Assembly (NCBI GenBank): GCA_012295275.1
Contig: CM022665.1
Coordinates: 44,268,001 to 44,332,000, forward strand
DNA from: Chrysomallon squamiferum
Taxonomy: Eukaryota; Animalia; Mollusca
Direction: 5' to 3'
DNA length: 64,000 nt
A program made the translations under genes and the position numbers. Of this stretch, positions 125 through 6,100 are shown piece by piece. The notes beneath the pieces are model-generated. The model saw only the letters and a list, made by a program, of their open reading frames with translations. It searched no databases and had not been told where the DNA came from. Each line of letters begins with the position of its first letter. The first letter of the stretch is position 1.

Positions 125-3100
125 GTAATGAATAACTTGGTTTTATTTTATATTTTTATTTATATATATATGTATATAGGTCTTTAACCTTTTTGAGATA
201 ACTTGTTCCTAAGAAGTCCATTTTACAATATCATTATCTAAATTGAAAAGAGAAGGGAAAAATATTTGTTCCAAACAAATAGCTTTTGAAAATGTATAAA
301 TAAAATAAATATAATTATCTTTATCTTTAATTATAATTATCTATAAAATGTTGAGATTACTGGTTCCTTTGAAATCTATTTTATTATCTCATTCATTAAA
401 CTGAAAACAAACGGAAAAACATATCTTCTAAGTAAATTAATTTCTGATGAATTATCTAAAAATAAAATAAATATTATAATTAAAATGAATATATATATAT
501 TTACTGGAAGAAACCATTTAATAAAATAATAAAAGAGTAATTAGTTTGTAAAGTTAAAATAAACTGGTTTATGACATGCTAATAAAATCATTTATGAAGT
601 AGAAATGAAATAGCCAGTTTATAAGACAACAATAACTATTAATTATTTTGCCTGAAGGGGGGGATCAGATGTTGTACAGATAACAATGAAATTATTAGAC
701 TTGGCCTTAGGGCATTCTTTATCAAGATTATTAAATTTACTGGCATGCCAACCACATCAAGTGTGTGTTGAGCTTGTGGAAAGTTTTCTTATTATATTGT
801 ATGATAACGTACATTGAATCTTATTTCAGACCTGACTGGATTATCCAAAGATAATTTTATTACTATTATTTATTTTTTTATTTTTTTATTTACTTATTTT
901 ATTATTATTATTATTATTATTATTATTATTATATAATTGATTAGTTTTCATTTCTTAAAATTATTTTATTGTACTTTTTAAAAATATTTTTTTATTTATT
1001 TATTATTTATGTTTGTTTTATTTTTATTTAATCTTTTTTATTTATTTATTTAGTTGATTTTTTTTTTCTTTATCAATGTGTGTGTGTGTGTGTGTGTGTG
1101 TGTGTGTGTGTGTATATATATATTTTTTTTTTTTTTTTTTTTAAATTATGGTACACAGTAAATATTATTTTTAAGAAAATTAATTATAAAAACAATCTAA
1201 AAGGTCAAATGAAAATATTTTCATTAAATAATAATATTAAAATGATCAAACTTATTGCATGATTAAAAAAAAAAAATGAAATTAATTTTGTAATCATAAT
1301 AATAAATGAAAAGAAAATAAAGTTAATACATTATTTTCAAAATAAAAACAATAAATGTCAAAGACATTTTTGAAAAAAAACAATAAAAAGAATGTAATTA
1401 ATGAAAAAAAAAATTAAACCTTTATATAATAAAATAATAAAAATAAATAAATAAATTATATATAAAGAAGTTAAGAAAAAAAAAAAAAATGATTAAACCT
1501 TTATATAAAAAAATAACGATAATAGCAATAAAAATAAATAAAAATAAATAAATAAATAATAATAATAAAATTTTAAAATATTTAAAAAAAAATTATTTTT
1601 TAAATATTAAAAATATATATATATATAAGAAAGTGAAGAAAGAAACAAAAACAAATAAAATAAAATAATGAAAAGTGTGAGATATCTGGGACCAGTGTTG
1701 TGTAATATAAATATAATAAACGCTCAGTGTGTTAATAATTGTTCTTGCTGCCGATGTTTGCCAACAGGTAGAACAGTACTACCAGCGAGCTCTAGAAATC
1801 TATGAAAGTAAACTTGGCCCCGACGATCCTAACGTAGCTAAGACTAAAAACAATTTGGTAAGATCGGTGGTCGTGTTCAATATACGCTGGGGTCAACGGT
1901 GACTGTCGCACATCCAGAATCAGAAATTCCATCGTAGAGAGCTTGTCTGTGTTTGTCCGTGTCCGTGTCCGTGTTGTAGCAGCTTTTGTCGTTTAAATCC
2001 TGGTTTTATTATATTTGTGTTAAAAAAATCTCTTTTGTATATTAACTTGTTTATTTCTGATGATTGAAATGCTTGGTTACCTTTGTGTGATTTCCGTGAA
2101 AAAACAAATTGAAATCAAAATTTTGTCTGTAAATGGTTTTATGATTACAAAAATTGATTTTTTTTCTTCTCATTTGTTAAGTTAGTTTATCTGTTATAAG
2201 AGCTGAACAAAAAGTTTTTAAAAATTGAATAAATTAAAAAATATTAAAAAAATAATTCATTTTCATTATCTCGGACACAAATTAATTTAACAGTGTTTTT
2301 GTAACACTAAGAATATATATATCCACTCCAAATTTTAAAACAGCAAGTGGAGATATTATTTATCCTTCCAGTAATATAAAATAATTATATTTTAACACTC
2401 TTATGATAGAATCAGGATGCTGGTATATTCTTTATTGTTAAGTTTTAAACTGAAACAGGTAAATTGTTTTATCTGTGCTTTACGTGTTAATACTAGGTCA
2501 GTCAGAGGCTTGTGGGGTGTAAGTTATTTTGTAAGACGTCAACATGGTGTCTTTTTTCTTATTGCTTTGGTATCATTTTTAACGATGGAATCTTCTGATG
2601 TCATCAGTTCTTTTTTAGACTAAATTAGCTTCAAAGAAAATTTGAAATTCTTTAGTAACAGAATTGCATTAGTCTCCTAATAAGTTTTGATGGATCCATA
2701 TAATGGGCTTGAACATTATATTTTGAAATGTAAAAACAAAATGCATACCGAAAAATTTGATACAAAATGTTTTTTGTTAAGATATGCTTGTATTTAAAGG
2801 AGAATGAATTTTGATTTTAAATTAAAAAAACAATAAACAACAACAACAACAAAAATTTAATTAATTAAATAAATAAATAAATAAAATTAAAAAACAGTAA
2901 GATAAACATGTATCATATAATGTCCAATCAGTGGAAAGTTTATGTAAATGATCTCTCCGTAAAAATTCATAAGGGGAATACAGCCACTGAAGAAATAAAA
3001 ACATTTATCCTTTTTGAAACATAAGAAAATCAATATTACATTATATATTTAAAACAATATTTTGAGATGTCATTCATCAAAACTTCAGTCAGCTAATGGA

Positions 3101-6100
3101 ATTCTGTTACTTAAAGAATTTTTATTTAAAAAAAAAAAAAAAAAAATTCCTTTTACTTACATCAATATTTTTGGAATTTCTTTTTGTCACATTCAAATTT
3201 AAAAAAAAAAAAAAAAAAAAAGAAAGGTAAAATAAAATTTTGGAAATAAAATATTTTTTCCAAACACAAACTGGATGTGCAGCAAGTTGGCCCCACTACC
3301 TGTGAAGGTACAGCATGCACCTTGCACTTTTTTAAAACTTATCTCTTGCAGGTAGAGAAGTATTATGTGAGAGCTTTAGAAATATACAAGAAAAAATTGG
3401 GAACTGATGACCCAAATGTGATAAAAACCCAAAACAATCTGGTAAGGCTGGTGGTAAACAAATTAACACTGCTCGGAGAGAAAAAAAAAAAAATATATAT
3501 ATAATCCTGTTTTACGCTTTCTGATCTAACAACAACTGGACATGCAGCCATTTTGTACTCAAATAAATACTAATGCTGTTGGCTTTTTTCTCTAATTCCT
3601 TTTTTTTTTTAATTTTCAGTATGTGGATGTCTGTTTGAAATGTTATAGAAAAGTTTTAAAAATGTTTTTTTTTTTTTTTGTCTGTTTGATATAAGAAATG
3701 TTAAAGAAAAGGTAAAAAAAAAAAAAATTTTTTTTTTTTGTATATAGATGTATGTGTGTGTTTATTTTAAAAATTTTAAGTGATAACTTGTTACCAAAAT
3801 TTTTTTTTTTTATATATATATGCATACAAAATTTATTACAAAAAATTATAAATGTTTTAAACGTGTGTATGTGCGAGTGTGTGTATAAAGTGAAAAACAA
3901 TTTTTTTTTTTGCTTATTACAGATTTTGAAAATTATTCACAAGATGTTTCACATACTGAATTTACCACTGATTTTTTTTTTCTTGTAGTCTTTCTAATCC
4001 TCTTTAAAAACAATCAGCTAGTGTTTGATTCAGATTTGACTGAATTGTTGCAGTTAATATGTTTAACTTTATAAATAAAATTAAAAAGTCTGATTGCAGT
4101 TTTTTTTAGTTAAAATCTTAATTCATATATATTTATGCTAACTCTCCATATTACATTTCTCTGCATGTATTATCCATGTATTCTTCAAATTCTTGCACAT
4201 AATGATGTATACAGGCTTATATGCATGCTTACATACATGCATACACATTTAAACACACAAACAGAAATGTACAAAACACAAGAACATATGGATTTATTCA
4301 GACAATTAATTGGTTAGTGCACCAGTATTAATTACTGTAATTTTATGTTGTCTGACATTAAACTGTAATGTTAAAAAAATTGTTTTAAAAACCATTTGTT
4401 TGTGCATGATAGAAGATCAAAACAGTTGAGTGTTATTAACTGTTTTTATTATTACCTTAGAATTGTTTATTTAAAAAAAAAAATGCATGTGGCAGTAGAT
4501 AAGTTATGAGTTTGAAAAATAATGATTAAAATATTTTTACTGAAACTACACACACACACACACACACACACTAATCTTTGTATTTGTTGGAATGTATTAT
4601 GCACAATTTGTAATTTTTAAAATGCACAAAATAAATATTAAAATACATTAGATGATCTGTTTATAAAAAACTGAATTTTGAGCACACAAGTAAATTGATT
4701 TTATTGTTGTGTATATGTGAATAGAATTGATACAAAAAGATCTGTTCTGAAACTCAAAATAACTCATCATATCACTATTATTAATCATTGATATCCTATC
4801 ATTCGTGAAGAAAATTAATTATTCCTTATTTTTTCATTTTTTCATTTAATTTTTTTTTCTTAATTTTAAATCTGTATTCACATAATGAACAGTTTAATAT
4901 ATATATATATTTTTTAATATATATGTTTCATATTACAACCAGTTTAAATAAAATAGATTTTACGTGTGTTTTTCTTATTCGTGATGTGAAACATAATGGG
5001 TTTCTGTTTGTGTTCAGGCTTCAGCCTACTTGAAACAAGGGAAGTACAAACAAGCTGAAGTCTTATATAAAGAAGTCTTAACAAGAGCACATGAAAAGGA
5101 ATTCGGAAAAGTAGAAGGTAGGTTTTTTTTGTCTTGAATATTTATTATTGTTATTATTTTTTTATAAATTTTTTTGTGTCAAAAAAAAAATCAGAAAAGC
5201 TGAATAGAAGGTTAATATTTTGTCTTAAATATTTAATTTCTTTGTTTCTTCTTCTTTTTTTTTTTTGGAATGTTTTGTGTAAAAAAATTAATATTAAATT
5301 TTTTAAAAAAGGTAAGGTTTTAAGATTCATAATTTGTCTTACATATTTAATTTCTTATTGTTTTTGTTTTTTAAATGTTTTGCATAAATAATTTTTTGTT
5401 TTAGATTAGATCCCAAATTGATTTTATTTTATTTCTGTTGTTCAAAGAGAGAATGAATAACAAAAAAGTATATAATTTATAAAAAATTATATATTTCTTA
5501 TTCCTGGTTTAATTTTTAAACTTTGAATTTCAGGCGAGAACAAACCTATATGGATGAGGGCAGAAGAAAGAGAAGAAAATAAGGTACCTCAGAATTTTTG
5601 TATTTATTTATTTATTTATTATGACAAATAAGCAATAGAAATACATCATAACAAATACATAAATATATAACTGTTCAATTAGATTAAATGAAAAACTGGT
5701 ATTTATATTTGTTCCATTAGTGAAGTATATTGTTATACGGTCTGTATTAAACAGTGTTAAATAACTCTTGATAATTTTTGTTATTTGGTTGTGTATTTAA
5801 CTTGATGTTTGTGGTGTCATAAAATACTTCAGATGATAAGTAGCAGTTTATTTGATTGTTATTTTATTTATTTCATGGAATTGATGCAGAAATTAAGTTA
5901 CTAATTTTACTGATGTATTAAATTAAAAAAATTTCCATCATGGACGAAGACCACATTTTCTCAGAGATTTTACTCTAAAAGTAATAACGTATAAGACTTG
6001 ACTTGTTATTGTCAAGGATGTCATATATATTTGTCCTCTTTTGTACCAATGTTGTATCTAACGAGAGAGAGAGAGAGATATATCATTTATTTATTTATTT

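Follow-up and report, generated by a model that had tools for sequence, protein, structure and literature searches.

How double inclusion is avoided when two duplicated, frame-keeping exons are separated by a long intron is unexplained for most clusters. In human, according to the figures given in one survey, branch-point proximity accounts for 57 clusters (9%), and other mechanisms are left for 484 (PMC5740500). The same question is raised by a kinesin light chain (KLC) gene of the mollusc Chrysomallon squamiferum, which lies in a stretch of 64,000 nt (contig CM022665.1 of assembly GCA_012295275.1, forward strand, positions 44,268,001 to 44,332,000) that is termed the window and supplies the coordinates used below. 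Two copies of one KLC exon, A and B, are parted here by an intron of 1494 nt, the two ends of which are predicted to be joined by a long-range helix (P1), and a second predicted stem (H0) closes exon A. On sequence and statistics, P1, H0 and a further helix termed P4 stand as predicted pairings, and gastropod gene models use either A or B singly. We tentatively favor the reading, which is a serious possibility though short of probable, that P1 as a standing clamp and H0 as a toggle would together make A/B splicing either-or. The pairings were computed, and every consequence for splicing is what we infer from them.

The RNA-structure cases proven in the literature come mostly from arthropods and a few mammalian genes, and no mollusc case and no KLC case of such splicing surfaced in a literature search that did not cover subscription journals. 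The present locus is small, comprises just two alternative exons and yields clear predictions for mutants; moreover, it offers a contrast between lineages, the exon choice being strict in gastropod and mussel gene models and leaky in oyster models.

The Exon Pair and Its Intron

The exons concerned are the following.

41..124, + strand: upstream KLC exon (U), recognized from its translation and AG/GT ends
1768..1857, + strand: exon A, 30 aa, TPR4 helix 8 to TPR5, aligned to KLC1 358-387
3352..3441, + strand: exon B, 30 aa
5018..5117, + strand: downstream KLC exon (D)

The gene had been named as KLC in the preliminary description, which is confirmed by its matches: ten of the 11 matches to exon B carry a name, all ten being gastropod KLC, and exon D is identical (33/33) to Haliotis, Lymnaea, Biomphalaria and two land snails. 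The two copies, A and B, each measure 90 nt in phase 0, with identities of 59/90 nt and 23/30 aa, and thus show the equal length, phase and homology of tandem-duplicated exons. Since both keep the frame, nonsense-mediated decay cannot enforce exclusivity, as had been reasoned earlier; no sign of enforcement by this decay or by U12-type splicing was found, A and B both being multiples of 3, with the donors GTAAGA and GTAAGG and CAG acceptors. The intron likewise exceeds, as proposed, the reach of plain steric exclusion: the linear distance from donor A to the branch region of B is more than 1400 nt, and the limit is quoted as about 50 nt (PMC7969005, PMC5740500) or as 60 nt (PMC13762713) in these sources.

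The two exons differ in seven residues between TPR4 helix 8 and TPR5, including E to K, S to K and K to Q. The equivalent of N386, a position numbered here from the KLC1 alignment and reported to bind JIP1 in KLC1 (PMC6214655), is kept in both. Because the differences spare this cargo-binding residue, the A and B isoforms likely differ in their outer-surface partners, not at the core peptide site.

A Predicted Helix Joining the Two Ends of the Intron

The helix P1 is composed of two arms, each supported by a sequence check and by shuffles.

1888..1917, + strand: P1 5' arm
3271..3295, + strand: P1 3' arm

Two colinear 10-bp helices followed by a 14-nt hairpin had been described at this place; all four 10-mers and the hairpin were recovered at their coordinates, with P1 starting 30 nt past donor A and ending 56 nt before acceptor B. 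Together with four weak middle pairs, both helices form a single duplex of -37.4 kcal/mol (RNAduplex), whose pair probability is 0.96-0.97 in the fold of 1690-3490 and at least 0.9 in all three prefix folds containing both arms.

The proposed RNAduplex comparison of 1860-2000 with 3240-3350 was marginal only, 46/1000 shuffles being as good (15/200 in cofolding). In composition-weighted local alignment, 2/20,000 shuffles reached the P1 score in these windows, and the count was the same when the first and last 100 nt of the intron served as fixed windows. P1 is the top one of 72 real donor-end by acceptor-end cells in this gene, with a score of 35.5 against 22.0 for the runner-up, and its arms are mutual best partners across the sense strand of the window. 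When the whole intron was shuffled and arms were kept at least 100 nt apart, the score was reached in 0/200 global and 0/200 block shuffles; once the null admits short hairpins, it is reached in 9, 28 and 49 per 500. One antisense control match outscores P1 (35.8 vs 35.5), and among 41 other real tiles the top three attain 35.1, 33.6 and 33.2; a second match there never exceeds 24.9, whereas the A-B intron has two at 35.5. P1 is therefore very likely not a chance product, though it is not unique in strength.

The 14-nt hairpin with a GNRA loop (3297-3310) is a minor form with a probability of 0.18. It is outcompeted by a hairpin at acceptor B (3296-3313 : 3338-3355), which has a probability of 0.56 and was equaled in 23/2000, 17/1000 and 55/1000 shuffles, and is probably not the relevant fold. 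The element involved is listed as follows.

3296..3313, + strand: element complementary to acceptor B (3338-3355), overlapping the GNRA hairpin 3297-3310

An allosteric shutting of acceptor B by P1 was also considered as a candidate and was not borne out by the opening energies (6.1 without P1 vs 5.2).

A Predicted Stem Closing Exon A

The second stem is built from the two flanks of exon A, and the flank of donor B can take the place of one of them.

1722..1767, + strand: acceptor-A flank (the "dock"), 5' side of H0, with the pyrimidine tract and the only branch-point-like TTAAT (A1735)
1855..1891, + strand: donor-A flank, 3' side of H0, sharing its final 4 nt with P1
3439..3476, + strand: donor-B flank, alternative partner of the dock (-27.6) or of exon A (pairing P0)

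In H0, the 45 nt ahead of exon A are paired with the donor-A flank (1723-1764:1855-1891) at -35.3 kcal/mol, so that the stem covers the pyrimidine tract and the donor of exon A and adjoins P1. No shuffle among 2000 was as strong, and the core at fixed offsets was matched in 1/2000. Of the 72 acceptor-by-donor cells, the one holding H0 has the lowest energy, and among eight exons such a stem is specific to exon A; second comes the same dock with the donor-B flank, in the same register (-27.6, 3/1000 shuffles). The stem is also specific to the sense strand (-35.3 vs -10.0 for the antisense). Across eight prefix folds its core has a probability of 0.65-0.93 and coexists with P1. The pairing P0, of exon A with the donor-B flank, was not significant (172/1000 and 59/1000 shuffles). 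The preliminary description had invoked a state in which exon A is masked without naming what masks it; H0 now provides a candidate, and the masking itself is predicted.

Nested Helices and Other Pairings of the Intron

Four helices are nested in the intron, P1 lying outermost and enclosing the remaining three.

1919..1935, + strand: P2 5' arm, 17 Watson-Crick pairs with 2582-2599, beginning 1 nt past P1
2582..2599, + strand: P2 3' arm
1997..2025, + strand: P3 5' arm, 26 pairs with 2390-2418
2390..2418, + strand: P3 3' arm
2645..2695, + strand: P4 5' arm, about 41 pairs with 3072-3121
3072..3121, + strand: P4 3' arm

P4 equals P1 in score (35.5) and was reached in 0/200 shuffles of both the global and the block null. 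P2 and P3 are significant solely in windows chosen post hoc (1/1000 and 0/1000) and were not significant intron-wide. P4 resembles a 477-bp element with 50-bp inverted ends and could be an old transposon end; no target-site duplication was found at the ends of P1-P4, and no further copies of the P2-P4 spans occur within the 64-kb window.

In the intron between U and A, a possible weak second partner of the P1 3' arm was noted.

745..769, + strand: S1, -27.9 kcal/mol

The two halves of the P1 3' arm both pair with S1, which is matched by 3/75 other tiles in the tile comparison and drops out of the top 10 when the cost of local folding is included. The surrounding region 640-800 is a GC-richer island (0.35 vs 0.18) without a second copy in the window.

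Elsewhere in the gene, two chained long-range pairs were observed in the variable 3' part of KLC, 9866-9903 x 10834-10872 (33.6) and 10867-10900 x 11428-11459 (29.8). They start about 25 nt past the donor at 9841, overlap by 6 nt and might compete. A further GC-rich pair, 14370-14389 x 14915-14935 (31.7), lies 40 nt beyond the KLC donor at 14330. A search of Rfam returned no family at gathering score, and its two weak miRNA matches attained 23.7 and 20.5 bits where 90 and 69 are required.

Natural Variation in the Helices

Variants were collected from contigs of four runs on 1690-2815, a range that takes in H0, exon A, the 5' arms of P1 and P4, and the whole of P2 and P3. One of the runs, X2, does not differ from the window, of which it may be the source, and it gives no support. 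On this range, 31 substitution sites, from other individuals, and 12 indel rows were listed, with 10 more rows beyond those listed.

None of the 31 substitutions falls in the P1 5' 10-mers, P2 or H0. Four lie in P3 or P4, three of which keep the pair (2000, 2409 and 2650), P3 having one pair-keeping variant in each arm; the fourth, at 2648 near the end of P4, breaks its pair unless the partner has changed too. A substitution at 1901 disrupts one of the weak middle pairs in P1. For the depletion test, nine indel sites were used, 1710 being counted once and 2227 and 2248 being dropped as confounded by repeats. Pair-breaking variants are depleted with p 0.039 for P1-P4, 0.107 with the middle pairs added, 0.007 with H0 added and 0.028 with both, and the variants are thus mild evidence for pairing.

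The same contigs afforded some separate observations. One X5 contig has three gap letters outside the indel list, within 1965-2076, which could fall in P3. X4, X5 and X6 share 11 extra bases at 2494, so that the window likely carries a deletion allele. No A-to-G difference was found in the RNA run X6, which as contigs is uninformative on editing.

Use and History of the Exon Pair Across Animals

The use of the exons was surveyed in 169 of 245 proteins, grouped by species and source, with vertebrate, arthropod, cnidarian, unnamed and fragmentary records and most single models excluded; the counts are of gene models, not reads, and the search was biased toward B-containing proteins. A and B are joined in none of 65 gastropod and none of 35 mussel RefSeq-style models, and in 5/6 submitter models of mussels; all 12 Lingula models are of the A type. 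The mutually exclusive use assumed in the preliminary description agrees with the RefSeq-style models of gastropods and mussels and is not universal, since oyster models often contain both exons. Tandem A and B stand in RefSeq-style KLC models of four oyster species (P0041-P0044, P0146-P0167), which would add 30 residues within the TPR array.

Judged by the sequences, the exon pair is old, because it occurs in gastropods, mussels, oysters, pearl oyster, the annelid Lamellibrachia and a metagenome locus (L003). In amphioxus, KLC models (P0045, P0047) have two exon copies that are closer to each other than to mollusc A or B, which suggests an independent duplication.

A metagenome scan gave 17 loci, four of which are animal KLC (L001-L004), and the exon pair was found in L003 alone; no other mollusc intron DNA was present among the 17. 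In L003 (5808-6090) the same KLC exon is duplicated across an intron of just 103 nt with CTAAT at +62, near the plain steric limit, and neither its intron hairpin (265/1000) nor its acceptor-donor pairings (146, 584 and 118 per 1000) were significant. L001 (6001-6090) and L002 (978-1067) show an intron-containing animal KLC in which the exon is single-copy, with A-like and B-like residues mixed. Among peptides read through from exon A in 111 other records, no conservation of the flanks was found, and a degenerate complementarity test on 31 such peptides (window p 0.55, set p 0.70) is uninformative, as its positive control failed.

A Proposed Clamp and Toggle

From these pairings, the following course of events can be proposed. 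H0 would form once exon A is transcribed, and P3, P2 and P4 would shorten the intron and let P1 close, after which H0 and P1 are predicted to stand side by side. When B is chosen, H0 would be shut and P1 formed, so that exon A and the whole intron would be looped out and two helices would guide the upstream intron to where B has its branch region. When A is chosen, either splicing factors or the donor-B flank would open H0, and U would join A. The gap that P1 would then leave between donor A and the branch region of B, about 54-72 nt or less, would be near the steric limit, and donor A, thus barred from B, would go to D. A role of the helix in exclusivity is plausible on this model.

The distance across P1 is the sum of 30 nt on the donor side and 24-42 nt to candidate branch adenosines (3319-3337) that were picked by eye; the only yUnAy match at acceptor B lies 11 nt from the acceptor. 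Small hairpins beside P1 (1872-1886 and 3297-3310) would shorten the path. The interpretation of the preliminary description is sustained in part. Its proposal that the helix could bring donor A close enough to branch point B to prevent their joining finds a borderline fit, the distance being predicted to fall from more than 1400 to 54-72 nt.

Several results weigh against the clamp and toggle. The distance of 54-72 nt is at or above the quoted limit of 50-60 nt, which renders the steric fit borderline. Forbidding P1 costs the ensemble only 3.8 kcal/mol and does not ease the opening of acceptor B, and helices of similar score exist in other KLC introns (33.6, 31.7). H0 drops to 0.0 in the full fold to 3490, where it is displaced by P0; opening the splice sites of exon A takes no unusual energy (12.1, against 8.6-19.9 for seven other KLC exons); and the local minimum free energy was equaled with shuffled flanks in 27/300. 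A and B are joined in 18/32 oyster RefSeq-style models and 10/19 gastropod submitter models. The depletion of variants loses strength with the middle pairs (p 0.11) and has no power for P1 alone (p 0.46), with indels as listed only. Finally, the pairings come from the intron of one species, and the RNA run X6 covers only 2220-2815, which is purely intron and thus without junctions or exon A.

It is also conceivable, though rather doubtful, that gastropods enforce an ancient either-or choice of KLC exons by such a non-competing clamp and toggle, which oysters would have lost. If this were true, four nested helices would give a 1.5-kb intron the geometry of one that is too short on steric grounds, a stem between the splice sites of exon A would switch the exon off and route the upstream intron to exon B, and oysters, with their common A+B models, would represent a natural knockout.

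Alternative Explanations

The alternative that survives best, to which we assign a modest probability, holds that P1-P4 are real RNA helices which merely shorten a long intron or bias the isoforms, exclusivity coming from proteins or splice-site strength. Similar helices beginning near other KLC donors (9866-9903 x 10834-10872 and 14370-14389 x 14915-14935) accord with it, and so do two reports from Drosophila, in which intron-bridging pairings of srp promote splicing (PMC4691838) and a predicted structure in Rdl is dispensable (PMC13762713), as described there. However, closeness of donor A to acceptor B without a block should increase A+B joining, yet it is seen in 0/65 gastropod RefSeq-style models, and H0 is unique to exon A among the eight exons.

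A competing docking/selector switch is unlikely. It would have the P1 3' arm choose between the arm that follows exon A (A mode, with acceptor B covered by the 3296-3355 hairpin) and S1 or a local partner (B mode). S1 does pair with both halves of the 3' arm, the acceptor-B hairpin falls from 0.56 to 0.02 when P1 is forbidden, both donor flanks are partners of the dock in one register (donor B, 3/1000), and P1 lies within about 4 kcal/mol of its alternative. Nevertheless, the borderline standing of S1 (3/75 other tiles, and not in the top 10 after charging local folding), the unimproved opening of acceptor B without P1, and the coexistence of P1 and H0, which share just 4 nt, speak against such a switch.

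Slightly less credit still is due to the idea that the arms have no RNA role and are chance matches of GC-rich islands by splice sites, or else the decayed remains of terminal repeats from nested transposons. The P1 arms do sit in GC islands (0.53 and 0.56 vs 0.27), the RNAduplex test was marginal (46/1000), the controls reach 35.8 and 35.1, P4 has the look of an inverted-end element, and the count of G-U to A-C (11:3) is not clearly above the background of 27:14. Yet block shuffles, which retain the GC islands, still gave 0/200, no target-site duplication was found, P2 and H0 both abut P1, pair-keeping variants exist, and H0 is strand-specific.

A distant branch point near donor A, as in OGDH, with the helices incidental, has precedent as a mechanism for exon pairs that keep the frame (PMC7969005, in the account given there) and finds a parallel in the 103-nt intron with CTAAT at +62 of the related locus L003, but it is highly improbable here, as 1858-1960 contains no yUnAy match and already six AGs, and the AG-free zone ahead of acceptor B spans only about 36 nt.

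Comparison with Known Systems

The closest system is human ATE1, likewise with a duplicated exon pair (7a/7b), as far as it is described in PMC7797038. There, R1 at the acceptor of the first exon pairs into the intervening intron, as H0 does in KLC, and the intervening intron (R3) pairs with R4 upstream of the second exon, as P1 does; loss of pairing in ATE1 leads to double inclusion, the same outcome that is predicted for KLC. In that account, however, R1 and R4 resemble each other, overlap splice sites and are rivals for one R3, whereas the KLC partners are adjacent, with 4 nt shared, and are predicted to coexist. Moreover, the P1 3' arm ends 56 nt short of the acceptor and H0 covers the donor too, unlike in ATE1 (PMC7797038), and the ATE1 mechanism has been proven by mutation, the KLC case being known from sequence and predicted folds.

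In Drosophila srp, Dscam1 exons 4, 6 and 9, and 14-3-3zeta (PMC4691838, PMC6071210), long-range intronic pairings near duplicated exons approximate splice sites, as in KLC. The pairings described in these reports span an exon, with docking sites in flanking introns (PMC4691838, PMC6071210), whereas P1 lies entirely inside the intervening intron and spans no exon. With OGDH 4a/4b the steric logic is shared, a donor being too near the next branch point (about 50 nt); the closeness reported for OGDH is linear (PMC7969005), and that of KLC would come from folding.

A docking/selector system has one dock with at least two exclusive partners. At the present locus, P1 and H0 coexist, S1 is a borderline second partner, and the dock pairs with both donor flanks; since P1 and H0 use adjacent stretches and coexist, the locus is not filed as a member of that class. 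Drosophila Dscam1 exon 17, to go by the title of Yue 2013 (PMC3917985), is said to be a two-exon cluster in which RNA structure and steric hindrance are combined. The KLC case is set apart by its 1494-nt intron, which would be collapsed by the four nested helices.

Other Features of the Window

Two neighboring genes were recognized by eye. The one at about 24700-30700 on the - strand is presumably an enolase-phosphatase E1 gene, and that at 35600-61000 on the + strand we take to be a gene like ribosome-binding protein 1/kinectin. Strong local palindromes or hairpins with scores of 55-110 were found at 18763-18862, 29440-29511, 31403-31502 and 43945-44016, possibly as remnants of small transposons.

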